Positions 11,093 to 40,911 of a stretch of DNA of 64,000 bases are shown here, piece after piece (position 1 is the stretch's first letter; every line of letters starts with the position of its first letter). The notes below the pieces were generated by a model, which was given only the letters and a program-made list of their open reading frames with translations, was not told the origin of the DNA and did no database searches. This stretch comes from Ostreococcus lucimarinus (taxonomy: Eukaryota): assembly GCA_000092065.1 (NCBI GenBank), contig CP000591.1; one strand, 5' to 3'. Both the position numbers and the translations under genes were made by a program.

Positions 11093-11263
11093 GGCGAGCG
11101 CGAGCGGCGAAGTGTCGCTCGCGAGCGGGACGCGAAGCGTCTCGGCGCGCGGGACTAATGGGCGGGGTAGCAATACAAAGAGGCGAATCGAGCCTCGCTA
11201 AAACACACAAATACGCAAACGCAACGCGGTGACGGTCGACGCGTCGATCGATCGGCGCGTCGA

Positions 11264-11746: not shown

Positions 11747-11905
11747 GGTGTTCGCGCGTCGAGTGCGCGCGCGTGGCGGGGTGCGCTCGGTCACCGCGCG
11801 CTGCGATGTGACGCGGCGTTTCGGAGGGCGCGTTCGACGGGCTATCCTCGCGAAGCGAATAGAATTTCTATGAAAGTACACGCGTCAGGACGCGACGACG
11901 CTAGA

Positions 11906-13954: not shown

Positions 13955-14353
13955 GACGGTCGCGCGGCGCGTCGTCGCCGCGCGCGCGAATCTCGAGCTG
14001 TCGCGATGTGAGCGCGCGCCGCGCCTTCACGCTCGCGCGCGCGCGCGTCGCGCGCCGCGCGCGGCGCGCGCGCGATCGTCGTCGGTCGGTGTCGCGGTCG
14101 CGCGCGTCGTTCGCCGCGCGCTCGCGCGTGCGGCGCGCCGTCCGTCGTCGCGCGATTCAAACGCGCCGTGTTTCAGCGCTTCAATACGGACGCGGTTCAT
14201 TATATATAGTATGACACTGTATGCACACACGCGACCGACCGCACGCGCGCGAGGGTCGCGCCGCGCGCGCGATTCCGCGCCGCAGCGCGCGCGCCGACGC
14301 GCGGGGGCTCGACATCGGCGCCGAAACGCGTCGCGGTTCCGACGCTCGCCTCG
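13955..14353. promoter_or_regulatory. extremely CpG-dense (CGCG)n-like divergent intergenic region between ATG13 (-) and TatC (+)
   Basis: Nearly 400 bp of almost pure alternating CG/GCGC runs (e.g. 14030..14110 gcgcgcgcgcgcgtcgcgcgccgcgcgcggcgcgcgcgcgatcg). No ORF with coding character. It sits between two divergently oriented gene starts. Confidence 0.3.
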
Positions 14354-15544: not shown

Positions 15545-15630
15545 GCATAGCACGCACAACATTTAGCGCACCATTCATCAACGCTCCAAAGCATCGCTTC
15601 GCTTCAACAACGAACGATAATAATACAACA

Positions 15631-15697
15631 AACGAGCTACGTCGACTAAGCGGACGCGTCCAAAGAACGAGCTGCGTCGACTAAGCGGACGCGTCCA
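15631..15697. repeat. 32-bp direct repeat x2 (aacgagctRcgtcgactaagcggacgcgtcca), period 35 bp
   Basis: Copies at 15631..15662 and 15666..15697 differ at one position. They lie in the convergent 3' region between TatC and Rpp30, and the second copy overlaps the last codons and stop of the minus-strand Rpp30 gene. Confidence 0.6.
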
Positions 15698-16628: not shown

Positions 16629-18261
16629 GCCGCTCGCGCTCGCGCGCGGCGCGCCCGCGCTCGGCGCGACGCGCGTCGCGCTCGAGCGACGCGAACGCGC
16701 GCGACGCGGCGGCGCGACGCGACGCGACGCGACGCCGCGCGCGATGGGGGCGATGGGCGCGACGCGCGCGGGCGATCGCGCGATGACGCGCTCGAGCGCG
16801 ACGCGCGGGTCGGGCGACGATTACGACCTCGACGCGGGCATCGCGGGCGCGACGCCGGGCGATGGATGGACGCCGACGTCGTACGACGGACGCGGGAGCA
16901 CGGGGGACGTGTACCAAGGGCCGGCGCGGCTGGCGGAGGGATTGCGAAGACACACCGTGCTGGTGTACGTCGCGGACGAGACCGGGATGATCAATCGCGT
17001 CGCGGGGGTGTTCGCGCGACGAGGGTACAACATCGAATCGCTCGCGGTGGGGCTGAACATCGACAAGGCGATTTTTACGATCTCGGTGATTTGCAGCGAC
17101 GGCGACGTGGGGAAGCTGATCAAGCAGGTGAATAAATTGGCCAAGGTGCGAAAGGTGGAGAACGTCACGGATAAGGAGTGCGTGGAACGAGGGTTGATGC
17201 TGCTGAAGGTGAAGTGCGAGCCCGAACAGCGGTCGCAGGTGCTGGAGATTAATCGGATTTTCCGAGCGAGCGTGGTGGACGTGGCGGAGCGGTCGCTGAC
17301 GATGTCGGTGGTGGGGGATCCCGGGAAGAATCGAGCGTTTCAGAGCGCGCTGATGAAGTTCGGGGTGATTCAAGTCGCGCGAACGGGGAAGTTGGCGCTG
17401 AAGAGAGAGCCCGTGTACAGCGAGGCTCGGTCTCGTCGAGTGAAACTCATGGAGGCGATGCGAAAGGCGAAGGACGCGGTGAGCGGATTAAACATCAAGG
17501 AGAAGAGCGCCAAGTACGAGAGCATCTTGGCGTCACGAATCGTTCGCGCGGTCGCGGGGATGGAACACGACGATGACGGCGACTTGCACGTCGGCGACGT
17601 GTACACGTCGCTCGAGAACGACGAAATCGGAGTGTGGGACGTCCCCGTGCTCAGCTCTTCCTTCTCGGGACTGGGGCACGGTAGCGACAAAGTCGACATC
17701 GACAAGATGGACGAAAACGCCAAGTACACGCCGCACACTATCTCTATTTTGGTCGATAACCGCCCGGGCGTGTTGGATTCCATCACCGGCGTGTTCGCTC
17801 GTCGCGGGTACAACATTCAGTCCCTCGGCGTCGGCCCGGAAAGAACTTTCGACATCTCTCGCATTTCCACCGTCGTTCCGGGCAGTACCGAAGACATCGC
17901 GATGCTGCTCAAGCAAATCTTAAAGGTGCCTTACGTCATCTCCGCCGAAGATATCACGATGACGCCGTTCACGGAGCGCGAACTCATGCTCATCAAGGTC
18001 GTCAGCTCTCGCGCGCAACGAGCAGAAATTATCGATTTGTGCGGCATGTTCCGAGCCAAGGTGTGCGACATCTCCGAAGACACCGTCACCATCGAAGTCA
18101 GCGGGCGCCAGCGTAAGATTAACGCCATTCAAGCGCTTCTCGAGCCGTACGGGATTCTGGAAGTTGCGCGCAGCGGTCGCGTCGCGCTCCCGCGCGATTC
18201 GGGCGTCGATTCCAAGCTCATGATGGCGATCGAGTCCGAAAGCGATCTCGACAAGTGGTAA
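16627..18261 (+). CDS. ilvH: acetolactate synthase small (regulatory) subunit, plant-type with duplicated ACT domains (chloroplast-targeted)
   Basis: Two ACT-domain repeats match the plant ALS small subunit almost residue for residue: RHTVLVYVADETGMINRVAGVFARRGYNIESLAVGLNIDKAIFTISV and HTISILVDNRPGVLDSITGVFARRGYNIQSLGVGPERT. ATG at 16627; the N-terminal ~90 aa are a transit-peptide-like extension, so the true start may be an internal Met. Confidence 0.85.
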   Translation: MPLALARGAPALGATRVALERRERARRGGATRRDATPRAMGAMGATRAGDRAMTRSSATRGSGDDYDLDAGIAGATPGDGWTPTSYDGRGSTGDVYQGPARLAEGLRRHTVLVYVADETGMINRVAGVFARRGYNIESLAVGLNIDKAIFTISVICSDGDVGKLIKQVNKLAKVRKVENVTDKECVERGLMLLKVKCEPEQRSQVLEINRIFRASVVDVAERSLTMSVVGDPGKNRAFQSALMKFGVIQVARTGKLALKREPVYSEARSRRVKLMEAMRKAKDAVSGLNIKEKSAKYESILASRIVRAVAGMEHDDDGDLHVGDVYTSLENDEIGVWDVPVLSSSFSGLGHGSDKVDIDKMDENAKYTPHTISILVDNRPGVLDSITGVFARRGYNIQSLGVGPERTFDISRISTVVPGSTEDIAMLLKQILKVPYVISAEDITMTPFTERELMLIKVVSSRAQRAEIIDLCGMFRAKVCDISEDTVTIEVSGRQRKINAIQALLEPYGILEVARSGRVALPRDSGVDSKLMMAIESESDLDKW

Positions 18262-18297
18262 CGCGAAATTTATCAATCGAATACAACAACACAGATC

Positions 18298-19227
18298 CTA
18301 CGCCTCGCCGAGCGCCCCAGGAAACAGGCGTAAAAAGTTATCGCCTCTAATATTCGCGAGGAGCGCGGGATCGTCGTCGCCTATTTGCCGCTCGAGCACT
18401 CGAACCGCGTCGGCGTAGCCTCCCTCCTCGGCGGTGACGAAAGGGTAGTCCGACCCCCAGATCAATCGATGTGGACCGAACACCTTGACGAGCTCGCGCA
18501 ATTGCGTCGCGGTCGAGTCGCCTCCGTCGCTCGTTTCTATGCGCACGCGGAAATGCGCCGAAACCTTCACGCTCACTTGTGGGAAGTCTCGCCCGAGCGC
18601 CTGTAACAACTCAAAGTTCGGATCATCCACGCCCTTGGTGAATCCGAAGTGATCGATCAGCACCGGCACCGTCGGTTCCGCTTTGAGAAGAGCGCGAATT
18701 TCGTCCACGTGCAAATCAAGTCCGTTGAAGCACATGAAACCCACCACCGCGGGCGGCGTTCGCGCCGCGCACGCGCGCATCATTTTTCTCCCTATTTCGC
18801 CATCCATACCCTTGCCATTCGGCCATAGCCCTGGATTGAATCGGACGCCGCGAAAACGTCCCGCGAGGAGCTTCTCCAACGCCTCGACGCCGGCGTCTCC
18901 CGCGCTCGGGTTCGCCAGACACATCCCCACGAAGCGATTGGCGTGCGTCTCCAACGCACGCTCTACGTACGTGTGATCGAACCCTAGGTTTATCGGTTGC
19001 ACGATCATCGCCGCGCGCACGCCGTTGGCGTCCATCGCGGCGATGAGCTCATTCGCCGCCCCGGGAACTGGAGGCGCTTTGCCGTCTTCGTACGCGAAAT
19101 CCTCCGCGCTCGGCCACACGTGCACGTGCGCGTCGATTATGGACGCGCGCATCGCGATGCGCCGGCTCGAAACGCGCGTTGAGACGGTGACGCTCGGTCG
19201 AACTCGCCTCGCCGCGGCCGCGAGCAT
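18298..19227 (-). CDS. metal-dependent amidohydrolase (Amidohydro_2/TIM-barrel hydrolase family)
   Basis: IIDAHVHVWPS near the N-terminus is the metal-binding HxH motif. Also NRFVGMCLANP, IDHFGF and IWGSDYPF are typical of the amidohydrolase-2 family. First ATG at 19227 (the track start is GTG). Confidence 0.6.
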   Translation of the reverse strand: MLAAAARRVRPSVTVSTRVSSRRIAMRASIIDAHVHVWPSAEDFAYEDGKAPPVPGAANELIAAMDANGVRAAMIVQPINLGFDHTYVERALETHANRFVGMCLANPSAGDAGVEALEKLLAGRFRGVRFNPGLWPNGKGMDGEIGRKMMRACAARTPPAVVGFMCFNGLDLHVDEIRALLKAEPTVPVLIDHFGFTKGVDDPNFELLQALGRDFPQVSVKVSAHFRVRIETSDGGDSTATQLRELVKVFGPHRLIWGSDYPFVTAEEGGYADAVRVLERQIGDDDPALLANIRGDNFLRLFPGALGEA

Positions 19228-26499: not shown

Positions 26500-27963
26500 C
26501 TATTCGTACGCGCTGTCGGATGCACCGCACACGGCGACGCGGACGACGGCGGAATGTTCGCCGTTACTTATGGCGTCGAATTCGTCGCAAATGCGACGGC
26601 GTTCGTCTTCGCTCAATCTCGAACGCAAACCCACGGAGAGCATGTCTAGCTCCGGAGCGTCTGGCGTGAAAGGGAACGTGTTGAATAAGTCAACGAGCTT
26701 GTTGAGCTCGAGCATGGTGGCGACGCTGTCGTTACTTCGAAGTCCCGCTCCGGCTTGAACGACGGCGCCGCGCACGCGAACGGCGACGTCCGCCATGACG
26801 ATGGAGACGCACTTGTGCGCATCTAGGCTCAGATCATCCGAAAGACCGACTAAAAATGGTCCAACAGGAGTGTTAAATGCGCTCGTCGCGCCCGCTTGGC
26901 CGCGCATGGCGTCCGTGACGGCGAAATCAGCGGCGGCTCGAAAGATGGCGACTCGCGCGCTCTCCGGTCCGACCGACTTTACCGCGCACCCTCGCTCGCC
27001 CGCCGCCGCGCACGCGGCGCGAAAATCGGCGATATCATCCGCACTGAATCCCGCGCCGCTGACTCGCTTCGCCGCGAGCGTTGCTCCTTGCGCTTTCGCG
27101 ACTTGAATCAGCGCCTCCTTGCGTCCCGGCGGCACGTACTGCGGCGACGGCGGCGTCCACCACGCCGGCAACGCCTTCGCCGCGCCGCTCGTTTTCTTCT
27201 CGTTTCCCCGCGCCTTCGTCGCGGATCCCGGCTTTACGTTCGCGTCTTCGGGAACGTCGTCCAAAGCCCCCTCTAAACGTTTGCGTTCGTCCCGAAACCG
27301 ATCCGCCGTCGCCGGCACCCAAACCTGCCGCCCGCCGAGACTGCGGTCGCCGACCCACCGCCCCGGTCCCGTCGCCCCCGGCGGCGGCGCCCGACGACCC
27401 ACGCCCTTGAACGCGCTCCCGATCGCTCGAAGCGGGTTCTCGCGATTGATGACCTTGAGCGCGATCCACGCGCACGCGAACAGCGTCCCCCACGCCGCCG
27501 CCGCCCGCCCGTACGCCGACGCCGGGTTCGGTCGCTGCGGCCTGTACACCGTCGCGTACGTCCCGGGCGCGCCGACGCGCGCCGGAACGTCCGCGCGCGG
27601 CCTGAACGCGCCCGCGTCGCGCGGCAGCAGCGCGTCGACGGCTTTTTGCGACGCCTTTTTCACTTTTCGCTGCACTTTTCGGATAAATCGTTGCGCGTCG
27701 CTCCGTCGCTCCGGACGCGCGCGCGCGGCGTCGAGCGCGCGCGTCGCCGGCGCGACGTGCTTTTCGACGTAATCGTCCATCTCGCGCTCGTAATCGCGCG
27801 CGCTGGACGATCGTTTCTTGGCTTCTTTCTCGCGAAGGCGATTCTTGGGGCCGGCGCGCGGGACGACGTCGACGCGACCGGGACGGGCGCGGCGTCGCGC
27901 GAGCGTCGCGCGCGCGCTCGCGACGCGCGCGCCGAAGCGTGGATTCGTCGCGCGAAGCGACAT
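26500..27963 (-). CDS. hypothetical protein
   Basis: ATG at 27963. The 487-aa ORF has a complex C-terminal third (VTDAMRGQAGATSAFNTPVGPFLVGLSDDLSLDAHKCVSIVMADVAVRVRG...LELNKLVDLFNTFPFTPDAPELDMLSVGL). No family recognised. Confidence 0.35.
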   Translation of the reverse strand: MSLRATNPRFGARVASARATLARRRARPGRVDVVPRAGPKNRLREKEAKKRSSSARDYEREMDDYVEKHVAPATRALDAARARPERRSDAQRFIRKVQRKVKKASQKAVDALLPRDAGAFRPRADVPARVGAPGTYATVYRPQRPNPASAYGRAAAAWGTLFACAWIALKVINRENPLRAIGSAFKGVGRRAPPPGATGPGRWVGDRSLGGRQVWVPATADRFRDERKRLEGALDDVPEDANVKPGSATKARGNEKKTSGAAKALPAWWTPPSPQYVPPGRKEALIQVAKAQGATLAAKRVSGAGFSADDIADFRAACAAAGERGCAVKSVGPESARVAIFRAAADFAVTDAMRGQAGATSAFNTPVGPFLVGLSDDLSLDAHKCVSIVMADVAVRVRGAVVQAGAGLRSNDSVATMLELNKLVDLFNTFPFTPDAPELDMLSVGLRSRLSEDERRRICDEFDAISNGEHSAVVRVAVCGASDSAYE

Positions 27964-28792: not shown

Positions 28793-30241
28793 TTACGACG
28801 CCGCCGAGCGAACGCGACGCGGAAACGGGACGAAGGACTCGTGATCGGACTTGTCCTTGCCGGGCAGCGGCGGCGACGAGGGAATCCCAAAGTCGCGAGA
28901 TCGAAACGCGCGGAATTCGCGCTTGATGGCGGCGTACGGTTTGTTCTCCATCGCCCGACGCGCGCGGGGCGGGAGACGGGATAAAACGTCGGCGTCGAAG
29001 GAGGCGCACAGCTCTCGCGCGCACAGGGCGGAGGACGCCGCGCCGGAGGCGCGACACTTTTTGCCGTAGCCGTGGAGGAAACCGATGGCGCCGAGAAGGC
29101 GCTCGACGCGGCCGGATGCGATGTCGACGGCGCCGACGGCGTCGTTGAACTCAAACGTCGATCGCGACGGCGCGACGTACGTCACGCACGTCGGCGACGC
29201 GACGCGATCGCCGTCGACGACGGCGCGATAGGACGAGAGATCGTCGCTCGGTGCGTCGACGGCGACGCATCGTGGTTCGACCCGGTCGTCGGATTGTGAG
29301 TCGTCCAATCGCGCTCGTTTGACGATCGCGCGTTTCAACGCGAGAGCGACGACGCGTTTCGTCTCTTCGGCGCGCTCTTCGCGAACGTTTGGAATGGACA
29401 CGCAGATCGACCGTGGCTTGATCGCTTCGCGCGCGACGAGGCGCATGAGCGTGCCCTGTAAACCATGCATCTGCCAGCGACACATTTTATCCGAACAGCT
29501 CAAACAAAACGATGGCGCGCCTCTGCCCGGCTTCCATCGCACGGCGCCGACTTCTTGCGTCGGGCGATCGCGTTCGGGATCCGCGCCGCCGCCGCCACCG
29601 CCGCCACCGTTCATGTCCGTCAATATTTTCGCACCCGTCACCCCCGCACCTCCGCCCGCACCCCCCGTCGTCTTCGCTCGCTTCACCGTCGCCGTCGAAG
29701 CCTCCGCGCCGCCGTCGCTCCGCCTCGCCTCGCTCGGCAACTCGAACACGCTCGCGTCGCCGCACGGCGACTGACTGCAATACGCGTGCACCTCCACCCC
29801 CGCGCGCATTCGCACCCGATTCCCAGCGCCTAATATCTCATCCCACGCCGTCTCTTCGTCGCACCCAGCGCCGCGTTCGCGCGTCACCTCGAACACGCTC
29901 GCTCGTCCGTCCCTCGCCTCGGCGTACTCGCGCTGCAACCACCGCGTCAACGCGCGTCTCGCCAACACCTCCGCGTGACAGTCCCCGATCGCGCCCCCGT
30001 CGCGCGCGCGGTTCGCCATCGGCACGCACTTCGTCCCCGTCGCGAACGCCGCGACGTAGCACGTCCCTCGCGCGCTCGCCGCGTCGTTTCGCTCGACGAT
30101 GCAAAAAGCGCACAGCGTCGTGTACGCATCCTTCGACGTTTTCTCGCGTCCGCGCGCGTCGTACGTCGCCAGCGCGCACGCGCGCACGACTGCGGCGACG
30201 CGTTCGACGTCGTCGACGTCGTCGACGGCGTGCGCGCGCAT
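28793..30241 (-). CDS. ADAT1: tRNA-specific adenosine deaminase (ADAT1-like, A_deamin domain)
   Basis: Deaminase zinc-ligand motifs in order: DCHAEVLARRALTRWL (HAE), SPCGDAS (PCG), and CSDKMCRWQMHGLQGTLM (the conserved SDK...W..LG.QG motif of ADAR/ADAT1). ATG at 30241. Confidence 0.65.
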   Translation of the reverse strand: MRAHAVDDVDDVERVAAVVRACALATYDARGREKTSKDAYTTLCAFCIVERNDAASARGTCYVAAFATGTKCVPMANRARDGGAIGDCHAEVLARRALTRWLQREYAEARDGRASVFEVTRERGAGCDEETAWDEILGAGNRVRMRAGVEVHAYCSQSPCGDASVFELPSEARRSDGGAEASTATVKRAKTTGGAGGGAGVTGAKILTDMNGGGGGGGGADPERDRPTQEVGAVRWKPGRGAPSFCLSCSDKMCRWQMHGLQGTLMRLVAREAIKPRSICVSIPNVREERAEETKRVVALALKRAIVKRARLDDSQSDDRVEPRCVAVDAPSDDLSSYRAVVDGDRVASPTCVTYVAPSRSTFEFNDAVGAVDIASGRVERLLGAIGFLHGYGKKCRASGAASSALCARELCASFDADVLSRLPPRARRAMENKPYAAIKREFRAFRSRDFGIPSSPPLPGKDKSDHESFVPFPRRVRSAAS

Positions 30242-30294
30242 GCGCGCGCGCGAGACTGCCGATTCGCGCGCGCGTCTCGTCGCGCGCGTCGCCG

Positions 30295-30328
<34 letters not shown>

Positions 30329-30523
30329 AGTCGAGCGCGTTCGAGCGCCCTCACTGTTCGCGTATACGCCATGTGTCCGAACATCGCGCGCGCTTTTCGC
30401 GTTTCGCGCCGCGCGCGTCGTATTGCGCGACGACGCGTCCCATCGATCGCGACGCGCGATCGCTAAGCGCGATCGCGACGCGCGCGACCGACCGACCGAC
30501 CGCCGTTACATGCGCCAACACCA

Positions 30524-30529
30524 TAAATG
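30524..30529 (+). promoter_or_regulatory. TATA-like ATAAAT element ~85 bp upstream of the giant-gene ATG, preceded by a (CCGA)4 microsatellite
   Basis: caccATAAATgaggttgcgc is one of the very few A/T hexamers in a GC-saturated divergent intergenic region (30242..30609). Confidence 0.2.
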
Positions 30530-30609
30530 AGGTTGCGCATCGCATCTTTCGCCAGATCGCGACGCGCGTCGCCCGCGACGCCGCGAACGAGGACGGCGAA
30601 CGACCGGCG

Positions 30610-33600
30610 ATGACGCGCGTCGAGCGCGTCGCGCTGCTCGGACGCGCGCGCGACGTCGAGGACGGCACGCTCGGCGCGGGAGGCGCGTTCTTCGGGACGA
30701 ACACCGCGCGCGACGGCGACGGCGACGACGACGGCGCGCGAGAGCGCGCGCGCGAGCGCGGCGGCGCGCGGCGAGGACGGGGGACGATCGCGGTGGGAGC
30801 GATGTGCGTCGCGATCGGGGTCGCGATCGGATCGGTGACGACGTCGACGCGGGAGGGAGGACGGACGACGGGCGACGTCGCGAGCGTCGGCGCGAACGCG
30901 CCGAGCGGAGCGACGAGTCGCGCGGCGCGGGGCGCGGAAGAGGCGAATTTGGGCGACGCGACGTCGTTGGCGATCGCGAGCGTTCCCGCGGATTCGTGGA
31001 TGTCGTTCTCGACGGGGAAAGTGCGAAAGCGAAAGTATCCGGATTCGTTTTATTACGTCGTCGCGCCGGAGGCGGACGAGGAGGTCGGGTATTTGGGCGC
31101 GCCGAGCGACTGGCCGACCGGGGATCGGGTGACGGTGGATCTGCACACCGGGTGCTCGCCGATCGACGCTCTGCCGTTCCAGCGTCCCGGGTTTGATTTC
31201 GACACCGTTCAGGCCCGCTTTGTGAGCAAGAAGCTCAGCATGGAGTTCATGTTTGAGGACTCGCAGCCGATGACCAAAGTCGGGTGCGGACATTTCCGGG
31301 CCACGGTAGAGCTCTCGAAAGGATGGGAGTTTGGGTTCTATCTTCATGCGAATGGCGACGACAGCGACGAGAACACGATGCTCGACATCGGGTGCGAAAC
31401 CGCGGTGCCGGGCGCCAACAACACCAAGTGTCCGGATTTCGCTTCACCGGCGATGCTCGCGACTTCGGAGTGCACGGACAAATTCGTGTGTAATCATGGT
31501 CTGTACACGTTCTGGAATCGAAGATACGATGGCGAACAAACGTCGTTCCTGTGGGGGGCTTGCGGAAGCGAGTGTCCGCACCAGGACTGCGGCCACATGT
31601 ACTGCGCGGCGAACGAGCGCGTGCAGAACCAAGCGTGCGCGTCGTGTCCGCCTGGGACGACGAACGATGCGGGCGATAAGAACGTCGGCGCCGATACGCA
31701 GTGTGATCCGGTCATCTGCGGAGCGCACATGCGCGTGCAAGATCACAACTGCGTGCAGTGCGTCGCCGGTAAGGAGAACGAAGCCGGCGACGACGCCTCA
31801 CAAAGTAACACCGAGTGCGACGCCGTCATTTGCGAGCCGAATCATCACGTGGCGGGCAATGTGTGCACGGCGTGTCCCGCCGGTCACGCGCACGCCGGCG
31901 GCGACGTGCAGCACGGCCCTGATACGTCGTGCGACGAAGTGCTTTGCCACACGAACGAGCGCGTTCTCGGCCACCAGTGCGTGGCGTGTCCTCCGGGCTC
32001 GACGAACGCCGCCGGCGACGGCGCGGCGAGCGGCGATACGCAGTGCGACCACACTATTTGTCCGGCGAACATGCACGTCGTTGGTCACGTGTGCACGCCG
32101 TGTCCACCGGGTATGAACCACCCAGGTGGCGACGACGCTTTTTTCGGCGACACGTCGTGCAGCGCCATTCTCTGCCAGTCGAATCAGCGCGTGCTGGGTC
32201 ACGCGTGCGTCAGCTGTCCGCCCGGGACGACGAACGATGCGGACGACGACGCCTCGGGTGGCGACACGCAGTGCGATCCGGTCATCTGCGGAGCGCACAT
32301 GCGCGTGCAAGATCACAACTGCGTGCAGTGCGTCGCCGGTAAGGAGAACGAAGCCGGCGACGACGCCTCACAAAGTAACACCGAGTGCGACGCCGTCATT
32401 TGCGAGCCGAATCATCACGTGGCGGGCAATGTGTGCACGGCGTGTCCCGCCGGTCACGCGCACGCCGGCGGCGACGTGCAGCACGGCCCTGATACGTCGT
32501 GCGACGAAGTGCTTTGCCACACGAACGAGCGCGTTCTCGGCCACCAGTGCGTGGCGTGTCCTCCGGGCTCGACGAACGCCGCCGGCGACGGCGCGGCGAG
32601 CGGCGATACGCAGTGCGACCACACTATTTGTCCGGCGAACACGCACGTCGTTGGTCACGTGTGCACGCCGTGTCCACCGGGTATGAACCACCCAGGTGGC
32701 GACGACGCTTTTTTCGGCGACACGTCGTGCAGCGCCATTCTCTGCCAGTCGAATCAGCGCGTGCTGGGTCACGCGTGCGTCAGCTGTCCGCCCGGGACGA
32801 CGAACGATGCGGACGACGACGCCTCGGGTGGCGACACGCAGTGTGATCCGGTCATCTGCGGAGCGCACATGCGCGTGCAAGATCACAACTGCGTGCAGTG
32901 CGTCGCCGGTAAGGAGAACGAAGCCGGTGACGACGCCTCACAAAGTAACACCGAGTGCGACGCCGTCATTTGCGAGCCGAATCATCACGTGGCGGGCAAT
33001 GTGTGCACGGCGTGTCCCGCCGGTCACGCGCACGCCGGCGGCGACGTGCAGCACGGCCCTGATACGTCGTGCGACGAAGTGCTTTGCCACACGAACGAGC
33101 GCGTTCTCGGCCACCAGTGCGTGGCGTGTCCTCCGGGCTCGACGAACGCCGCCGGCGACGGCGCGGCGAGCGGCGATACACAGTGCGACCACACTATTTG
33201 TCCGGCGAACACGCACGTCGTTGGTCACGTGTGCACGCCGTGCGCGCCGGGTCGTGACCACCCAGGTGGCGACGATGCGACTCTCGGCGACACGTCGTGC
33301 AGTGCCATCATGTGCGGGCCCAACCAGCACGTCGTGAGCCACGCTTGCACGGTGTGTCCAGCAGGAATGGTTAACGATGCGAACGACGACGCTTCGGGTG
33401 GCGACACGCATTGCGATCCGATACTGTGTCCATCGAATCAACGCGTGCAGGGTCATACGTGTGTGCAATGTGCGCCCGGGAAGACCAACGCACCCAATGA
33501 TGATGCCTCTAGGGGCGACACTGAGTGCGATATTACGTACTGCGCCGCAAATCAGCGCGTACAGGGCCATCAATGTGTCGCGTGTGCGCCCGGCACGACG

Positions 33601-36600
33601 AACGATGCCGGCGATGACGCCTCGCAAGTCGACACGCAGTGCGCTCCGATCATTTGTGGCGCACACATGCGAGTTCAAAGTCACGCGTGCGTACAGTGCG
33701 TCCCGGGTCGCGAGAACCTGGCGGGTGACGACGCCTCCGGCCAAGATACACCCTGCGATGAAATCGTGTGCGAAGAGAACCACAAGGTCGTGAGCCACCA
33801 GTGCGTGGCGTGCCCCGCGGGGAAGATACACACGGCTGGCGATGTTGCTTCGGGGCCAGACACGTCTTGCGACGCGGTGACGTGTAGCACGAACGAGCGC
33901 GTTCAAGGCCACCAGTGCGTGGCGTGTCCGGCCGGCACGACAAACGACGGCGGCGACGACGCGTCGGGTGGCGACACGCAGTGCGATCCGGTCATTTGTC
34001 CAGCACAAACGCACGTACAAAACCACGTGTGTGAGGTGTGTCCTCCCGGTCATGCGCACCCAGGTGGTGACGACGCGTCTCAAGGCGACACGCAGTGCGA
34101 CGCAGTGATGTGTGGGGCAAATTATCACGTGCAAGATCATCATTGCGTGCCATGTCCAACGGGTAAAGACAATCAAGCGAACGACAATGCCGCGGGCGCA
34201 GATACAGAGTGCGACATCATCTATTGTGCTGCCAATCAACGCGTACAAAACAACGTCTGTACCGCGTGTCCGCCCGGCACAATTAATGCAGGCGGTGATA
34301 ACGCGTTTGACCATGATACCACTTGCGATACCGTTTATTGCGGCGTGAATCAACACGTCTTTGAAAATGAATGCGTCCCTTGTCCGGCAGGGATGGTAAA
34401 CCCGTCGGGAGACGACGCCACCGGGCCCCGCACGTTTTGCGAGCCAATCATCTGCGGCGCGCACATGCACGTACAGAATCATCAGTGCGTGCAATGTGCT
34501 CCAGGTGATGAAAATTTGGCTGGCGATAGTGCCGCGCAACACGATACCACCTGCGACGAGGTCACTTGTTCTGCGAACGAGCACGTGGTGAGCCACCAAT
34601 GCACGGCGTGTCCCGCCGGTCACGCGCACGCTGGCGGCGACGTGCAGCACGGCCCTGATACGTCGTGCGACGAAGTGCTTTGCCACACGAACGAGCGCGT
34701 TCAAGGCCACCAGTGCGTGGCGTGTCCTCCGGGCTCGACGAACGCCGCCGGCGACGGCGCGGCAAGCGGCGATACGCAGTGCGACCACACTATTTGTCCG
34801 GCGAACACGCACGTCGTCGGTCACGTGTGCACGCCGTGCGCGCCAGGCTACGAACGACTTGCCGGCGACGACGCCACCGGTGGTGATACGCAATGCAGTG
34901 CTGTCTTGTGCGGCGCAAACATGCACGTGCAGAATAATTTGTGCGCGGCGTGCCCCGCTGGCACGACGAACGCCGCCGGCGACGACGCCTCGCGAGGAAA
35001 CTCGGAATGCGATCACACTATCTGCGAAGCGCACATGCGAGTGCAGAGTCATCAGTGCGTCGCGTGCATGGATGGCAAGGAAAATCTGGCGGGAGACGAT
35101 GCCGCTGGGGGGGACACACAATGCGATGAAGTCATCTGCGCTGCCGATCATCATGTATTAAACCATCAGTGTGTATCGTGCCCTTACGGTCACGCGCACG
35201 CCGGCGGCGACGTGCAGCACGGCCCTGATACGTCGTGCGACGAAGTGCTTTGCCACACGAACGAGCGCGTTCTCGGCCACCAGTGCGTGGCGTGTCCTCC
35301 GGGCTCAACGAACGCCGCCGGCGACGGCGCGGCGAGCGGCGATACGCAGTGCGACCACACTATTTGTCCGGCGAACACGCACGTCGTTGGTCACGTGTGC
35401 ACGCCGTGCGCGCCGGGTCGTGAACACCCAGCCGGCGACGACGCCACCGGTGGTGATACGCAATGCAGCGCCGTGATGTGCGGATCCAACATGCACGTCC
35501 AAAACCACGTGTGCACGGCGTGCCCGGCCGGGACGACGAACGCCGCCGGCGACGACGCTTCCGGAGCGAATACGCAGTGCGACCCAATCTTGTGTGGCGC
35601 GAACCAACACGTCTTGAATCATCAGTGCATGCAGTGCCCGCCCGGCACGCTCAATGACGCCAGCGATAGCGCTGCCGGTGGTAATACGCAGTGCGACGCC
35701 GTGCAGTGCGGCTGCAACCAACGCGTGCAGGGCCATCAATGTGTCACGTGTGCGCCCGGGACGACGAACGACGCCGGCGATGACGCCTCACAAGGCGATA
35801 CGCAGTGCGATCCGACCATCTGCGGCGCGCACATGCGAGTGCAAGATCACGCGTGCGTAGCGTGTGTGGACGGTCGAGAGAACCTGGCGGGTGACGACGC
35901 CTCACAAGGCAACACGCAGTGCGACGAAATCGTGTGCGAAGAGAACCACAAGGTCGTGAGCCACCAGTGCGTGGCGTGCCCCGCGGGGAAGATACACACG
36001 GCTGGCGATATTGCTTCGGGCCCAGACACGTCTTGCGACGCGGTGACGTGTAGCACGAACGAGCGCGTTCAAGGCCACCAGTGCGTGGCGTGTCCGGCTG
36101 GCACGACAAACGACGGCGGCGACGACGCGTCGGGTGGCGACACGCAGTGCGATATTACCCGGTGCACGGCGCACATGCACGTACAAAACCATGTGTGCGT
36201 GCAGTGCCCGGCCGGTAAAGAGAACGTCGCGGGTGATGACGCCTCTGGAGGTAACACGGAATGCGACGTCGTGCGATGCGGTGCCAACCAGCACGTCGTC
36301 GACCACGTGTGCACGGCGTGTCCGGCCGGGACGACGAACGATGAAGGCGACGACGCTTCGGGAGCGAACACGCAGTGCGATCCCGTCATCTGTGAATTGC
36401 ACATGCGAGTGCAGAATCATCAGTGCGTCGCGTGTGCGCCTGGCAAGGAGAATCTGGCGGGCGACGACGCCTCGCAAGGTAACACCGAGTGCGACGCCGT
36501 CATTTGTTCTGCGAACGAGCACGTGGTGAGCCACCAATGCACGGCGTGTCCCGCCGGTCACGCGCACGCCGGCGGCGACGTGCAGCACGGCCCTGATACG

Positions 36601-39600
36601 TCGTGCGACGAAGTGCTTTGCCACACGAACGAGCGCGTTCTCGGCCACCAGTGCGTGGCGTGTCCTCCGGGCTCAACGAACGCCGCCGGCGACGGCGCGG
36701 CGAGCGGCGATACGCAGTGCGACCACACTATTTGCCCTGCGAACACGCACGTCGTCGGTCACGCGTGCACGCCGTGTCCGCCAGGTCATGAACACCCGGC
36801 CGGCGACGACGCCACCGGTGGTGATACGCAATGCAGCGCCGTGTCGTGTGGGCCCAACATGCACGTCCAAAACCACGCGTGCACGGCGTGCCCGGCCGGG
36901 ACGACGAACGCCGCCGGCGACGACGCTTCTGGAGCGAATACGCAGTGCGATGCGACAATTTGCGCACACAACAAGCATGTTGTCAACCACGAGTGTGTTC
37001 CGTGTCCAGATGGCCATGAACACCCAGGCGTCGCTGATGCTTCTGGCTCCGATACTTCGTGTGATGTCACGCTGTGTGGCGCGAACCAACACGTCGTGAA
37101 TCATCAGTGCATGCAGTGCCCCCCCGGCACGCTCAATGACGCCAGCGATAGCGCTGCCGGTGGTAATACGCAGTGCGACACCGTGCAGTGCGGCGTCAAC
37201 CAACGCGTGCAGGGCCATCAATGTGTCACGTGTGCGCCCGGGACGACGAACGACGCCGGCGATGACGCCTCACAAGGCGATACGCAGTGCGATCCGACCA
37301 TCTGCGGCGCGCACATGCGAGTGCAAGATCACGCGTGCGTAGCGTGTGTGGACGGTCGAGAGAACCTGGCGGGTGACGACGCCTCACAAGGCAACACGCA
37401 GTGCGACGAAATCGTGTGCGAAGAGAACCACAAGGTCGTGAGCCACCAGTGCGTGGCGTGCCCCGCGGGGAAGATACACACGGCTGGCGATATTGCTTCG
37501 GGCCCAGACACGTCTTGCGACGCGGTGACGTGTAGCACGAACGAGCGCGTTCAAGGCCACCAGTGCGTGGCGTGTCCGGCTGGCACGACAAACGACGGCG
37601 GCGACGACGCGTCGGGTGGCGACACGCAGTGCGATATTACCCGGTGCACGGCGCACATGCACGTACAAAACCATGTGTGCGTGCAGTGCCCGGCCGGTAA
37701 AGAGAACGTCGCGGGTGATGACGCCTCTGGAGGTAACACGGAATGCGACGTCGTGCGATGCGGTGCCAACCAGCACGTCGTCGACCACGTGTGCACGGCG
37801 TGTCCGGCCGGGACGACGAACGATGAAGGCGACGACGCTTCGGGAGCGAACACGCAGTGCGATCCCGTCATCTGTGAATTGCACATGCGAGTGCAGAATC
37901 ATCAGTGCGTCGCGTGTGCGCCTGGCAAGGAGAACGAAGCCGGCGACGACGCCTCGCAAGGTAACACCGAGTGCGACGCCGTCATTTGTTCTGCGAACGA
38001 GCACGTGGTGAGCCACCAATGCACGGCGTGTCCCGCCGGTCACGCGCACGCCGGCGGCGACGTGCAGCACGGCCCTGATACGTCGTGCGACGAAGTGCTT
38101 TGCCACACGAACGAGCGCGTTCTCGGCCACCAGTGCGTGGCGTGTCCTCCGGGCTCAACGAACGCCGCCGGTGACGGCGCGGCGAGCGGCGATACGCAGT
38201 GCGACCACACTATTTGCCCTGCGAACACGCACGTCGTCGGTCACGCGTGCACGCCGTGTCCGCCAGGTCATGAACACCCGGCCGGCGACGACGCCACCGG
38301 TGGTGATACGCAATGCAGCGCCGTGATGTGCGGATCCAACATGCACGTCCAAAACCACGTGTGCACGGCGTGCCCGGCCGGGACGACGAACGCCGCCGGC
38401 GACGACGCTTCTGGAGCGAATACGCAGTGTGATGTCACGCTGTGCGGCGCGAACCAACACGTCGTGAATCATCAGTGCATGCAGTGCCCGCCCGGCACGC
38501 TCAATGACGCCAGCGATAGCGCTGCCGGTGGTAATACGCAGTGCGACGCCGTGCAGTGCGGCTGCAACCAACGCGTGCAGGGCCATCAATGTGTCACGTG
38601 TGCGCCCGGGACGACGAACGACGCCGGCGATGACGCCTCACAAGGCGATACGCAGTGCGATCCGACCATCTGCGGCGCGCACATGCGAGTGCAAGATCAC
38701 GCGTGCGTAGCGTGTGTGGACGGTCGAGAGAACCTGGCGGGTGACGACGCCTCACAAGGCAACACGCAGTGCGACGAAATCGTGTGCGAAGAGAACCACA
38801 AGGTCGTGAGCCACCAGTGCGTGGCGTGCCCCGCGGGGAAGATACACACGGCTGGCGATATTGCTTCGGGCCCAGACACGTCTTGCGACGCGGTGACGTG
38901 TAGCACGAACGAGCGCGTTCAAGGCCACCAGTGCGTGGCGTGTCCGGCTGGCACGACAAACGACGGCGGCGACGACGCGTCGGGTGGCGACACGCAGTGC
39001 GATATTACCCGGTGCACGGCGCACATGCACGTACAAAACCATGTGTGCGTGCAGTGCCCGGCCGGTAAAGAGAACGTCGCGGGTGATGACGCCTCTGGAG
39101 GTAACACGGAATGCGACGTCGTGCGATGCGGTGCCAACCAGCACGTCGTCGACCACGTGTGCACGGCGTGTCCGGCCGGGACGACGAACGATGAAGGCGA
39201 CGACGCTTCGGGAGCGAACACGCAGTGCGATCCCGTCATCTGTGAATTGCACATGCGAGTGCAGAATCATCAGTGCGTCGCGTGTGCGCCTGGCAAGGAG
39301 AACGAAGCCGGCGACGACGCCTCGCAAGGTAACACCGAGTGCGACGCCGTCATTTGTTCTGCGAACGAGCACGTGGTGAGCCACCAATGCACGGCGTGTC
39401 CCGCCGGTCACGCGCACGCTGGCGGCGACGTGCAGCACGGCCCTGATACGTCGTGCGACGAAGTGCTGTGCCACACGAACGAGCGCGTTCTCGGCCACCA
39501 GTGCGTGGCGTGTCCTCCGGGCTCAACGAACGCCGCCGGCGACGGCGCGGCGAGCGGCGATACGCAGTGCGACCACACCATTTGCCCTGCGAACACGCAC

Positions 39601-40278
39601 GTCGTCGGTCACGCGTGCACGCCGTGTCCGCCAGGTCATGAACACCCGGCCGGCGACGACGCCACCGGTGGTGATACGCAATGCAGCGCCGTGTCGTGCG
39701 GGCCCAACATGCACGTCCAAAACCACGTGTGCACGGCGTGCCCGGCCGGGACGTGGAACGATGAAGGCGATGACGCTTCCGGTGCGAACACGCAGTGCGA
39801 TCCGGTCATCTGTGAAGTGCACATGCGAGTGCACGATCACGCGTGCGTTGCGTGTGCGCCTGGCAAGGAGAACGAAGCCGGCGACGACGCCTCGCAAGGT
39901 AACACCGAGTGCGACGCCGTCATTTGCGAGCCGAATCATCACGTGGCGGGCAATGTGTGCACGGCGTGTCCCGCCGGTCACGCGCACGCCGGCGGCGACG
40001 TGCAGCACGGCCCTGATACGTCGTGCGACGAAGTGCTTTGCCACACGAACGAGCGCGTTCAAGACCACCAGTGCGTGGCGTGTCCTCCGGGCTCGACGAA
40101 CGCCGCCGGCGACGGCGTGGCAAGCGGCAATACGCAGTGCGACAGCACTATTTGCGGGGCGAACAGGTACGTATCAAACCATGTGTGCGTGCTTTGCCCT
40201 TACCAACACTATCGCGCCGCCGGCGACGACGCCACCGGTCCCGACACGGCATGTATACGATATTACGGTCTCGGATAG
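30610..40278 (+). CDS. giant cysteine/histidine-rich tandem-repeat surface protein (predicted type-II membrane protein; ~75 ephrin-receptor-like/GCC2_GCC3-like 38-aa repeats)
   Basis: A single uninterrupted 3,222-codon frame from the ATG at 30610. After ~55 aa a hydrophobic signal-anchor GTIAVGAMCVAIGVAIGSV is followed by a unique ~290-aa domain (YYVVAPEADEEVGYLGAPSDWPTGDRVTVDLHTGCSPIDALPFQRPGFDFD...). From ~31590 come ~75 back-to-back 38-aa repeats of the form C-D-x3-C-x2-N-x-R-V-x-x-H-x-C-V-x-C-P-x-G-x-x-N-x-x-G-D-D-A-S-x-x-D-T-x. The ORF-track extension back to 29512 overlaps ADAT1 on the other strand and is Arg/Ser/Pro junk. Confidence 0.75.
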   Translation: MTRVERVALLGRARDVEDGTLGAGGAFFGTNTARDGDGDDDGARERARERGGARRGRGTIAVGAMCVAIGVAIGSVTTSTREGGRTTGDVASVGANAPSGATSRAARGAEEANLGDATSLAIASVPADSWMSFSTGKVRKRKYPDSFYYVVAPEADEEVGYLGAPSDWPTGDRVTVDLHTGCSPIDALPFQRPGFDFDTVQARFVSKKLSMEFMFEDSQPMTKVGCGHFRATVELSKGWEFGFYLHANGDDSDENTMLDIGCETAVPGANNTKCPDFASPAMLATSECTDKFVCNHGLYTFWNRRYDGEQTSFLWGACGSECPHQDCGHMYCAANERVQNQACASCPPGTTNDAGDKNVGADTQCDPVICGAHMRVQDHNCVQCVAGKENEAGDDASQSNTECDAVICEPNHHVAGNVCTACPAGHAHAGGDVQHGPDTSCDEVLCHTNERVLGHQCVACPPGSTNAAGDGAASGDTQCDHTICPANMHVVGHVCTPCPPGMNHPGGDDAFFGDTSCSAILCQSNQRVLGHACVSCPPGTTNDADDDASGGDTQCDPVICGAHMRVQDHNCVQCVAGKENEAGDDASQSNTECDAVICEPNHHVAGNVCTACPAGHAHAGGDVQHGPDTSCDEVLCHTNERVLGHQCVACPPGSTNAAGDGAASGDTQCDHTICPANTHVVGHVCTPCPPGMNHPGGDDAFFGDTSCSAILCQSNQRVLGHACVSCPPGTTNDADDDASGGDTQCDPVICGAHMRVQDHNCVQCVAGKENEAGDDASQSNTECDAVICEPNHHVAGNVCTACPAGHAHAGGDVQHGPDTSCDEVLCHTNERVLGHQCVACPPGSTNAAGDGAASGDTQCDHTICPANTHVVGHVCTPCAPGRDHPGGDDATLGDTSCSAIMCGPNQHVVSHACTVCPAGMVNDANDDASGGDTHCDPILCPSNQRVQGHTCVQCAPGKTNAPNDDASRGDTECDITYCAANQRVQGHQCVACAPGTTNDAGDDASQVDTQCAPIICGAHMRVQSHACVQCVPGRENLAGDDASGQDTPCDEIVCEENHKVVSHQCVACPAGKIHTAGDVASGPDTSCDAVTCSTNERVQGHQCVACPAGTTNDGGDDASGGDTQCDPVICPAQTHVQNHVCEVCPPGHAHPGGDDASQGDTQCDAVMCGANYHVQDHHCVPCPTGKDNQANDNAAGADTECDIIYCAANQRVQNNVCTACPPGTINAGGDNAFDHDTTCDTVYCGVNQHVFENECVPCPAGMVNPSGDDATGPRTFCEPIICGAHMHVQNHQCVQCAPGDENLAGDSAAQHDTTCDEVTCSANEHVVSHQCTACPAGHAHAGGDVQHGPDTSCDEVLCHTNERVQGHQCVACPPGSTNAAGDGAASGDTQCDHTICPANTHVVGHVCTPCAPGYERLAGDDATGGDTQCSAVLCGANMHVQNNLCAACPAGTTNAAGDDASRGNSECDHTICEAHMRVQSHQCVACMDGKENLAGDDAAGGDTQCDEVICAADHHVLNHQCVSCPYGHAHAGGDVQHGPDTSCDEVLCHTNERVLGHQCVACPPGSTNAAGDGAASGDTQCDHTICPANTHVVGHVCTPCAPGREHPAGDDATGGDTQCSAVMCGSNMHVQNHVCTACPAGTTNAAGDDASGANTQCDPILCGANQHVLNHQCMQCPPGTLNDASDSAAGGNTQCDAVQCGCNQRVQGHQCVTCAPGTTNDAGDDASQGDTQCDPTICGAHMRVQDHACVACVDGRENLAGDDASQGNTQCDEIVCEENHKVVSHQCVACPAGKIHTAGDIASGPDTSCDAVTCSTNERVQGHQCVACPAGTTNDGGDDASGGDTQCDITRCTAHMHVQNHVCVQCPAGKENVAGDDASGGNTECDVVRCGANQHVVDHVCTACPAGTTNDEGDDASGANTQCDPVICELHMRVQNHQCVACAPGKENLAGDDASQGNTECDAVICSANEHVVSHQCTACPAGHAHAGGDVQHGPDTSCDEVLCHTNERVLGHQCVACPPGSTNAAGDGAASGDTQCDHTICPANTHVVGHACTPCPPGHEHPAGDDATGGDTQCSAVSCGPNMHVQNHACTACPAGTTNAAGDDASGANTQCDATICAHNKHVVNHECVPCPDGHEHPGVADASGSDTSCDVTLCGANQHVVNHQCMQCPPGTLNDASDSAAGGNTQCDTVQCGVNQRVQGHQCVTCAPGTTNDAGDDASQGDTQCDPTICGAHMRVQDHACVACVDGRENLAGDDASQGNTQCDEIVCEENHKVVSHQCVACPAGKIHTAGDIASGPDTSCDAVTCSTNERVQGHQCVACPAGTTNDGGDDASGGDTQCDITRCTAHMHVQNHVCVQCPAGKENVAGDDASGGNTECDVVRCGANQHVVDHVCTACPAGTTNDEGDDASGANTQCDPVICELHMRVQNHQCVACAPGKENEAGDDASQGNTECDAVICSANEHVVSHQCTACPAGHAHAGGDVQHGPDTSCDEVLCHTNERVLGHQCVACPPGSTNAAGDGAASGDTQCDHTICPANTHVVGHACTPCPPGHEHPAGDDATGGDTQCSAVMCGSNMHVQNHVCTACPAGTTNAAGDDASGANTQCDVTLCGANQHVVNHQCMQCPPGTLNDASDSAAGGNTQCDAVQCGCNQRVQGHQCVTCAPGTTNDAGDDASQGDTQCDPTICGAHMRVQDHACVACVDGRENLAGDDASQGNTQCDEIVCEENHKVVSHQCVACPAGKIHTAGDIASGPDTSCDAVTCSTNERVQGHQCVACPAGTTNDGGDDASGGDTQCDITRCTAHMHVQNHVCVQCPAGKENVAGDDASGGNTECDVVRCGANQHVVDHVCTACPAGTTNDEGDDASGANTQCDPVICELHMRVQNHQCVACAPGKENEAGDDASQGNTECDAVICSANEHVVSHQCTACPAGHAHAGGDVQHGPDTSCDEVLCHTNERVLGHQCVACPPGSTNAAGDGAASGDTQCDHTICPANTHVVGHACTPCPPGHEHPAGDDATGGDTQCSAVSCGPNMHVQNHVCTACPAGTWNDEGDDASGANTQCDPVICEVHMRVHDHACVACAPGKENEAGDDASQGNTECDAVICEPNHHVAGNVCTACPAGHAHAGGDVQHGPDTSCDEVLCHTNERVQDHQCVACPPGSTNAAGDGVASGNTQCDSTICGANRYVSNHVCVLCPYQHYRAAGDDATGPDTACIRYYGLG
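31700..33240 (+). repeat. higher-order repeat A: 570-bp unit (5 x 114 bp), ~2.7 near-identical copies
   Basis: The protein block CDPVICGAHMRVQDHNCVQCVAGKENEAGDDASQSNTECDAVICEPNHHVAGNVCTACPAGHAHAGGDVQHGPDTSCDEVLCHTNERVLGHQCVACPPGSTNAAGDGAASGDTQCDHTICPAN.HVVGHVCTPC... begins at 31702, 32272 and 32842 with essentially identical DNA. The antisense ORFs at 31798..32316 and 32368..32886 are letter-identical apart from one residue. Confidence 0.85.
35190..39600 (+). repeat. higher-order repeat B: 1368/1482-bp units (12 or 13 x 114 bp), ~3 near-identical copies
   Basis: The reverse-strand ORFs at 35902..36648, 37384..38130 and 38752..39498 translate almost identically (1-2 differences in 248 aa), spaced 1482 and 1368 bp apart. 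The forward protein repeats a ~460-aa block (CDPILCGANQHV.NHQCMQCPPGTLNDASDSAAGGNTQCD...CTACPAGTTNAAGDDASGANTQCD) three times. Confidence 0.85.
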
Positions 40279-40314: not shown

Positions 40315-40372
<58 letters not shown>

Positions 40373-40407
40373 GGCGCGCATCAAAACGCGACGCTCGAGT
40401 CGACGCG

Positions 40408-40911
40408 ATGCGCGCGTCCGCGCGCGTCGCGAGCGCGCGCGCGGTCGTGAAGCGCGAGCGCGACGCGCGATCGACGCGCGCGCGCGCGTTCGTGCCGCCC
40501 ATCGTCCCGAATCCGCGCCAGGGCGACGACGACGCGAATGCTGACGCGGCACCGACGCTGCCGAACATCGAACGCGCGCTGGCGCCGCACGGATGGGCGA
40601 TCGGCGCCGAGCGAGGGTACGACGACACGCCGCACGCGTTCAAGATATTCAAAGTGCGCGATGGGCATCACACGCTGGAACAGCTGCAAGAGGCGCTGTA
40701 CGTGAGCGACGAACGAGGGTGTCGGATACGACGCGAGACGCAGTCGTTGTTTTACATGTGCTGCGATGGCGTGCGGTGTCGGTTGAACGAGGGGAAGAAA
40801 GAGATCGTGGTGGAGATGCCGTGTGATTTGGACAGCGTGGGAGCGTACGTGGCGAAGGCCAAGGTGATTGAGGACATCATTAAGAGTTCTCAAAAGAAGA
40901 GGGCTTCGTGA
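40408..40911 (+). CDS. hypothetical small protein (possible Cys/His zinc-finger-like)
   Basis: ATG at 40408. 167 aa with a Cys/His cluster ERGCRIRRETQSLFYMCCDGVRCRLNEGKKEIVVEMPCDLDS. No family recognised. Confidence 0.3.
   Translation: MRASARVASARAVVKRERDARSTRARAFVPPIVPNPRQGDDDANADAAPTLPNIERALAPHGWAIGAERGYDDTPHAFKIFKVRDGHHTLEQLQEALYVSDERGCRIRRETQSLFYMCCDGVRCRLNEGKKEIVVEMPCDLDSVGAYVAKAKVIEDIIKSSQKKRAS

Follow-up and report, generated by a model that had tools for sequence, protein, structure and literature searches.

Nested near-identical blocks and in-register chimeric modules in a giant repeat gene of Ostreococcus lucimarinus

The window analysed here, a stretch of 64,000 nt from Ostreococcus lucimarinus CCE9901 (GenBank assembly GCA_000092065.1, contig CP000591.1), carries a 9.7-kb gene whose probable product, a giant repeat protein of 3222 amino acids (aa), contains an array of 76 in-frame modules. 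The original prediction, made from the letters of this stretch, held that near-identical higher-order repeats inside the gene reflect active concerted evolution and put the assembled copy number at risk. Our analysis revealed two kinds of higher-order blocks that are 98.8-99.5% identical at the DNA level, against a mean of 58% between adjacent modules, as well as a short cassette homogenised at nine dispersed positions and chimeric modules at the block junctions. Overall, in-register unequal exchange and block duplication within this single gene best explain these features, a reading to which we give a probability of roughly three in four.

According to this reading, homologous exchange would have taken place between misaligned modules, always in register, i.e., by multiples of 114 bp, and three layers would lie on top of each other in the array. 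The first would be an old module order with a rhythm of about five modules and a 12-module unit older than the divergence from a sister species, and the second a gene-conversion-like homogenisation of a ~220-bp cassette. Recent block duplications (five modules in 2.7 copies, 12 or 13 modules in three copies) would make up the third layer, with chimeric junctions marking the crossovers.

Anatomy of the module array

A module profile searched with nhmmer returned exactly 76 matches, every one within the array, which extends beyond the range of 31700-39600 proposed initially (Table 1) and keeps its reading frame intact over 8.7 kb. This head-to-tail arrangement of in-frame units of constant length (76 x 114 bp) is the one expected of a coding array that evolves in concert. 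The module consensus, xCxxNxxVxxHxCxxCPxGxxNxxGDDASxxDTxCDxx, includes four conserved Cys at positions 2, 13, 16, and 35. Adjacent modules share 47-68% of their DNA sequence and 34-63% (mean 48%) of their protein sequence; they had rightly been described as far less alike than the blocks, at a protein identity (50-70%) that proved slightly high. Grouping of the modules into types, that is, clusters at a DNA identity of at least 93%, yielded the string A BCDEF BCDEF BCD G H I J K LM N O P Q R SD T U V WD X Y for modules 1-35 and [ZabLMcdeSDf g h][ZabLMcdeSDf i][ZabLMcdeSDf j] e CD k from module 36 onwards. N-x-S/T sequons are missing from all 2892 array residues, though Asn accounts for 6% and Ser plus Thr for 12% of them, an absence that probably follows from the fixed placement of motifs.

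Tandem Repeats Finder reported the 114-bp period at 31921-33189 only. We computed a shift-identity profile over 31.4-40.3 kb, which stayed at 0.57-0.59 for most multiples of 114 and peaked at shifts of 570 (0.69), 1368 (0.68), 1482 (0.64), and 2850 (0.69). An ungapped diagonal scan for segment pairs within the array resolved these peaks into two higher-order repeats and gave block identities of 98.75-99.5%, in agreement with the ~99% anticipated from translations of antisense open reading frames (ORFs). Those ORFs are indeed letter-identical over 172 aa in two copies and 248 aa in three, as by-products of the repeat; long antisense ORFs cross the array at 32938-35154 (-) and also at 31798-32316, 32368-32886, 35902-36648, 37384-38130, and 38752-39498. 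The ~570-bp unit, corresponding to the BCDEF block, is present in the ~2.7 copies proposed, with starts displaced by 6 nt from those given at first (31702, 32272, and 32842; measured start, 31696). Its copies pair over 407 nt at a shift of 1140 (99.3% identity) and differ at 2/570 and 2/342 nt. The 1.37-1.48-kb unit likewise occurs in ~3 copies, differing pairwise at 9-12 of 1254 positions and carrying 7, 5, and 4 private changes, while the 35.2-39.6 kb ascribed to it fits only if a looser, 96% identical extension (35187-35582) is included. Exact repeats in the array reach 855 bp. In module 43 (36388-36501), five substitutions lie close together (KENLAG, against KENEAG in modules 56, 68, and 73) and resemble a short stretch converted from a b/K/R/V-type module.

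As predicted, the 1482- and 1368-bp versions of the large unit differ by exactly one 114-bp module, namely module 48, whose last 13 nt equal the end of module 60. The latter and module 72 are hybrids of two module types each, and all type switches in chimeric modules occur in register. Module 72 is directly followed by an e-type module, the same successor that d modules have elsewhere. Further downstream, module 74 equals modules 3, 8, and 13 at 114/114 nt, despite a distance of 7-8 kb, and shared diagonals link the head of the array with its tail (e.g., 31771-32049 = 39865-40143). In-register chimeric modules thus stand both at the one-module difference and at two other junctions, which upholds the footprint of unequal crossing-over that had been suspected from length alone.

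The ~220-bp cassette, which the original prediction missed, occurs in nine dispersed copies that are 96-100% identical within differing surroundings. It begins in the second half of a class-2 module (AGHAHAGGDVQHGPDTSCDEV), spans the D module, and reaches ~46 nt into the following one. Sliding identity is 90-100% within the cassette and falls abruptly to 50-70% on both sides, at edges that ignore module borders. The first and last cassettes, lying 8.1 kb apart, share 114-163 nt of perfect identity. A His-rich motif, AGHAHAGGDVQHGPD (e.g., 31882-31941), is located in this most homogenised part of the array and is kept in the sister species; a role in metal binding is conceivable.

Table 1. Coordinates of the array, its blocks, junctions and cassettes, and of the surrounding gene features in the window
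Feature	Position	Strand	Details
Array of 76 in-frame modules	31600..40263	+	each exactly 114 bp / 38 aa; 0 indels
Higher-order repeat 1, BCDEF block (5 modules, 570 bp), 2.7 copies	31696..33242	+	99.5% identical
Diagonal of repeat 1	31696-32672 = 32266-33242		977 nt; 99.5%; shift 570
Array middle, modules 15-35	33196..35589	+	single-copy types save embedded LM, SD, WD copies
Higher-order repeat 2, 12/13-module block, 3 copies	35590-39807	+	98.8-99.2% identical
Repeat 2, copy A (Z a b L M c d e S D f g h)	35590..37071	+	13 modules, 1482 bp
Repeat 2, copy B	37072..38439	+	12 modules, 1368 bp; closing in module 60 (i)
Repeat 2, copy C	38440..39807	+	12 modules; closing in module 72 (j)
Diagonal of repeat 2	35591-36947 = 37073-38429		1357 nt; 98.75%; shift 1482
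Diagonal of repeat 2	37059-38385 = 38427-39753		1327 nt; 99.0%; shift 1368
Diagonal of repeat 2	35596-36903 = 38446-39753		1308 nt; 99.2%; shift 2850
Module 48 (h), extra module of copy A	36958..37071	+	type unique in array
Module 60 (i), chimera closing copy B	38326-38439	+	Y/g-type head, h-type tail
Module 72 (j), chimera closing copy C	39694-39807	+	g-type nt 1-60, d-type nt 61-114
Terminal modules e C D k	39808..40263	+	module 74 at 39922-40035
Cassette copy 1	31882..32101	+	sliding identity and diagonals
Cassette copy 2	32452..32671	+	sliding identity and diagonals
Cassette copy 3	33022..33241	+	sliding identity and diagonals
Cassette copy 4	34618..34837	+	context R S D T
Cassette copy 5	35188..35407	+	context V W D X
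Cassette copy 6	36556..36775	+	context e S D f, unit A
Cassette copy 7	38038..38257	+	unit B
Cassette copy 8	39406..39625	+	unit C
Cassette copy 9, terminal	39976..40149	+	most diverged D copy; right-hand part unshared
Continuous ORF	29512-40278	+	open throughout
Probable coding sequence, giant repeat protein	30610..40278	+	3222 aa; stop TAG 40276-40278
Hydrophobic segment GTIAVGAMCVAIGVAIGSV	30781..30837	+	residues 58-76; mean Kyte-Doolittle 2.04
Non-repeated membrane-proximal N-terminal ectodomain (predicted)	30838..31599	+	~250 aa; conserved Cys; 41 invariant columns with homologs
tRNA adenosine deaminase gene	28793-30241	-	product exact match XP_001420424.1 (O. lucimarinus CCE9901)
Neighbour gene	26500-27963	-	product exact match XP_001420423.1 (O. 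lucimarinus CCE9901)

Divergence of the copies and comparison with a sister species

Synonymous divergence (dS) between block copies is 0.008-0.029 and averages ~0.08 between D copies, whereas neighbouring modules show a raw synonymous difference of ~0.66, i.e., they are saturated. The ratio of nonsynonymous to synonymous divergence (dN/dS) between block copies is ~0.1-0.3, which indicates that the sense frame is under purifying selection. As a natural haplotype for comparison we used a Tara contig (L001), which differs from the window by a dS of 0-0.011 in four flanking genes and is identical to it in the unique 5' part of the gene.

The closest non-identical homolog cluster of the product (P0002, 68% identity) belongs to an Ostreococcus-like sister species. 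Its locus is represented by two megabase-sized metagenome contigs with names ending in "_pilon", L008 and L009, which we took as nanopore assemblies from these names and their indel errors. L008 contains ~96 modules (7938-18846) in the order A BCDEF BGDEF HIJKLMF BGD.. HIJKLMF BGDEF BGDEF HIJKLMF ..., and L009 at least 63 before the contig ends within the array. The 10 copies of the sister D module show no differences. A sister unit of 12 modules, H I J K L M F B G D E F, keeps the order of Z a b L M c d e S D f g in the window, and its identity is 98.2-99.4% among the sister copies, 99.0-99.3% among those of the window, and 77% between species, as estimated with nanopore-based sister contigs. 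Identity within species hence exceeds that between species for a unit with the same module order. The cassette behaves alike, being ~82% identical between species (21-22/114 nt differ) versus 96-100% within each. This contrast, a classical signature, would be accounted for by concerted evolution or, equally, by parallel recent amplification of one ancestral unit; either way, the number of blocks would have changed since the species split.

Two side observations concern these sister sequences. The stretch 14494-15433 of L008 shows irregular module spacing (163, 121, 90, and 111 bp) and frameshifted or stop-containing modules, either because the nanopore consensus went wrong where reads are heterogeneous or because the modules have truly decayed. 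The protein MAK95759.1 (P0197), labelled as belonging to a "Euryarchaeota archaeon" metagenome-assembled genome, falls within the 90%-identity cluster of the sister-Ostreococcus ortholog and appears to derive from a eukaryotic contig binned into an archaeal genome.

Alternative readings and the true length of the array

Several points weigh against in-register exchange and block duplication as we propose them. An ancestral unit amplified independently in each species would generate the same within- versus between-species pattern as conversion among old copies, and equally well. The 76 modules and the 2.7 and three block copies are counts from the reference assembly alone, and both the start codon and the intron-free structure are predictions. 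Moreover, block copies are several-fold (about 5-10x) more diverged synonymously than haplotypes in the flanking genes, which means that the duplications predate haplotype divergence, unless conversion reset them. The recent timescale put forward originally holds with respect to the modules and, judged from the sequences, to the species split, although the duplications do not appear to be very recent, and "active" present-day turnover is only a possibility.

Purifying selection on the protein, rather than duplication or conversion, could in principle keep blocks and cassettes alike, as would fit a dN/dS below 1 and the cassette motif GHAHAGGDVQHGPDTSCDEVLCHTNE, kept in the sister species too. 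We regard this as highly improbable. It is contradicted by the low dS of blocks and D copies against saturation elsewhere; since synonymous sites are homogenised too, protein-level selection alone does not suffice to explain the identity. The drop in cassette identity between species and the sharp identity edges off the module borders argue in the same direction. An artefact of the reference assembly, either creating the near-identical blocks or misstating their number, deserves somewhat more credit and is still improbable. Exact repeats in the array are longer than a Sanger read, and none of the public protein models runs across the array, which is evidently troublesome to annotate. However, each copy bears private substitutions, no two of the junction modules (g/h, i, and j) are the same, the frame is intact throughout, and the sister long-read contigs exhibit the same architecture. 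The CCE9901 genome was reportedly finished from Sanger reads with paired clone ends.

Public sequences give a very different picture of array length. The 90% cluster of the gene's N-terminus consists of metagenome proteins only, mostly of 550-603 aa. The full product had no match among public proteins, and on the sense strand none exceeded 77% identity to the array interior or 72% to its middle (33196..35589). From these missing sense hits we had considered that the interior might be rare in nature, an idea that was withdrawn because it does exist in ocean metagenomes, as fragments on sub-kb contigs with genes called antisense (97-100% identical). Among them, P0347 (183 aa, 99%), P0349, and P0351 are all antisense translations of the array interior, one of which is encoded on the Tara contig L014. 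At least nine public contigs give five modules instead of 76. L001 and L004-L007, from MEGAHIT, SPAdes, and JGI assemblies, read A-B-C-D75-k between flanks 99-100% identical to the window, with D75 intact in L001, L005, L006, and L007 and a hybrid D in L004. For L005 and L007, each k-mer with k up to 163 is found in the window; the five-module form thus corresponds to a valid path in the reference graph and lacks a junction of its own, and the identity of module 74 to modules 3, 8, and 13 offers a route for this head-to-tail joining. With exact repeats of up to 855 bp and 163 nt common to head and tail, the structure is beyond short reads. Similarly, short-read contigs of the sister species contain 6-8 modules (L002, six) versus ~96 in L008. 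Short reads cannot size this array, and databases misrepresent the gene, in line with the massive misjudgement of repeat numbers described wherever reads are shorter than the repeat (PMC6868369). The warning that the assembled copy number is untrustworthy accordingly applies to short-read assemblies, whereas the long sister arrays lend credibility to a long array in the reference.

Two explanations of the shortened versions, artefact and real length alleles, stand at roughly equal odds. That the array is stable today, and that assemblers took shortcuts through shared sequence, comes close to an even chance. Beyond the k-mer content of L005 and L007, this explanation is favoured by the occurrence of interior modules as sub-kb metagenome contigs, such as L014 (551-bp Tara contig CERW01176031.1; 99.5% identical to window positions 33256-33806 and 100% to L003), by long arrays in both sister long-read contigs and the window reference, by the recurrence of head-to-tail shortening in sister short-read contigs, by the known miscounts, and by block copies older than strain-level divergence. 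It is at odds with the reference de Bruijn graph, in which, for all k from 31 to 127, the unitig from module A runs into a branch within module B and stops. A unitig assembler should break there, not pass, if the long allele dominated, yet at least nine contigs from three assemblers pass through. It is also at odds with the module sequences of L003 and L004, which are not reference-graph walks. L003 carries the modules A B C D E' H I J K L M c d e S D f and ends there; its E' is an E/G hybrid missing from the reference and, together with the hybrid D of L004, indicates that block borders harbour real variants of structure or sequence. Natural alleles of five, intermediate (L003-like), and 76 modules, arising by single recombinations between identical cassettes, are a tentative but serious alternative. 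They would account for the pass-through contigs with well-matching flanks, the unitig logic, the two join points, and the interior of L003, which matches the independent contig L014, and they are compatible with other contigs breaking past A B C D E F (e.g., P0187). L008 and L009 are likewise colinear over ~52 modules and then differ by ~14; this difference, however, falls in an error-rich nanopore stretch, and L009 ends within its array. Furthermore, unique k-mers are missing from the short form, it is not known so far from any isolate or long read, and the two-species pattern would require recurrent high-frequency head-to-tail deletions.

A bolder version, which we hold to be rather doubtful, is that wild populations carry rod forms of both 76-96 and 5-8 modules, interconverted by one recombination between the first and last cassettes. 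If true, a major surface protein would undergo a one-step length switch of large amplitude in two species, with possible relevance for contact with viruses or grazers.

Predicted product, relatives, and meaning

The gene lies within a continuous ORF, whose first 1.1 kb, upstream of 30610, encodes an Arg-rich sequence antisense to the tRNA adenosine deaminase gene at 28793-30241(-). Translation likely starts at ATG 30610; the N-terminus obtained in this way, MTRVERVALLG, lines up with those of homologs P0002-P0004 and P0015 from marine contigs. An AT-rich stretch follows the stop codon, and GC-rich micro- and minisatellites, including an imperfect (GC)n of ~79 bp, are found on both flanks of the gene (30187-30770 and 40322-40488). 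The segment GTIAVGAMCVAIGVAIGSV is the sole 19-residue stretch of the product with a mean Kyte-Doolittle value above 1.6, and the basic run RERGGARRGR immediately precedes it. This sequence prediction, of a hydrophobic segment flanked by basic residues and none elsewhere, is what a secreted or membrane-anchored surface protein would show, and by the positive-inside rule GTIAVGAMCVAIGVAIGSV would be the signal anchor of a type II membrane protein with a cytoplasmic N-terminus. Near the start of the putative cytoplasmic tail, an E-R-x-x-L-L motif (ERVALL, residues 5-10; window 30610-30660), kept in P0002-P0004, resembles an acidic dileucine sorting motif. The N-terminal ectodomain is common to P0002, P0003, P0004, and P0015 and has no Pfam or NCBIfam match. 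Its AlphaFold2 model, built from five sequences, has a beta-rich core at low confidence (predicted local distance difference test, 50) and was left out of fold searching.

Sequence searches of Pfam, NCBIfam, and PDB returned nothing usable for the modules or the N-terminal domain; the sole Pfam match was a weak one to PF23091 (22.7 bits versus a cut-off of 33.2), and a 494-aa block of the array matched zero families at E-values up to 1. Fold searches did retrieve cysteine-rich domains (CRDs) of the tumour necrosis factor receptor (TNFR) superfamily, the EphA2 CRD/Ephrin_rec_like domain, and the TNFR-like domain of ELAPOR1 (PF23091), and both of them returned Chlamydomonas Mst1 (PDB 8wa2 and 8tx1). 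The product would comprise a short cytoplasmic tail, an N-terminal anchor, an ectodomain, and 76 disulfide-stapled beta-hairpin modules forming a long, stiff extracellular rod with the C-terminus at its tip. The usual length of a TNFR module would make such a fibril ~200 nm long. Like TNFR-like CRDs, the modules would be small disulfide-stapled beta-hairpin units stacked as a rod, with a CxxCPxG-type motif; unlike them, they have a GDDASxxDTxC half outside the Pfam models and are present in 76 rather than 3-6 copies. TNFR CRDs have about 6 Cys per ~40 aa, a count that the module, with 4 Cys in 38 aa, does not reach. We therefore describe the protein as working like a TNFR-type disulfide rod and assign no membership of PF07699, PF23091, or PF00020. 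The term "variable surface protein" used in the original prediction appears a reasonable inference from the N-terminal anchor and the TNFR-like modules.

Comparison with known systems places the gene further. Mst1 is also an extracellular filament protein of the green lineage with many small cysteine-rich modules, whereas the window protein has a predicted N-terminal membrane anchor and no other domains; Ostreococcus is not known to have a flagellum. The picoplankton homologs P0003, P0004, and P0015 share the ERxxLL tail, the anchor, the unique N-terminal domain, and the modules, but have 7-13 of the latter and, in some cases, a C-terminal domain (in P0003, one that weakly matches PAN), in contrast to 76 modules and a bare tip. 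Satellite higher-order repeats and the human LPA kringle IV-2 variable-number tandem repeat likewise have blocks more alike than neighbours, exchange whole units, are homogenised within species, and require long reads; the array differs in being coding, with the dN/dS given above, 8.7 kb long, and limited to 2.7 and three block copies. Yeast FLO/ALS and giant bacterial repeat adhesins also combine in-frame repeats, a surface-exposed protein, and in-register recombination. Short-read miscounts are a further common trait (PMC6868369). Here, however, the unit is a folded 38-aa disulfide module, the layers are three and nested instead of one uniform unit, the host is a wall-less picoalga, and the array is known from sequence alone.

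The 38-aa module also occurs in marine Myxococcota FG-GAP proteins, in RCC1-repeat proteins, and in giant ORFs with RCC1-like repeats on viral-classed contigs (IMG/VR L010-L013; 45% GC), at 37-42% identity in the last case. The viral matches were discarded as uninformative on the O. lucimarinus locus. Judged by these sequences, the module family is widespread in marine microbes, and transfer between lineages is possible.

Exact look-ups of the products from starts 29512 and 30610 and of a 738-aa antisense ORF retrieved zero public records, and literature searches found no description of the gene. The phenomenon is of a known kind of repeat evolution, while the gene is apparently an undescribed instance of it, and the full 3222-aa product, a putative TNFR-like rod with an N-terminal anchor, is apparently undescribed and unannotated. 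Databases hold the family only as truncated products of 5-8 modules or as antisense fragments, so comparative or abundance analyses based on short reads are wrong by more than 10x in length. Ostreococcus is the smallest free-living eukaryote, and the O. lucimarinus cell, with a genome of ~13 Mb, is usually described as naked. For such a genome, a conserved array of folded modules 9-11 kb in length is a large investment. That two species keep it in frame and homogenised is a sign of an important extracellular structure, for which adhesion, spacing, or contact with viruses or grazers would be speculative functions. If the length differences among public sequences are real, this model picoalga would have, in the locus, a simple hotspot of surface variation that lends itself to testing.

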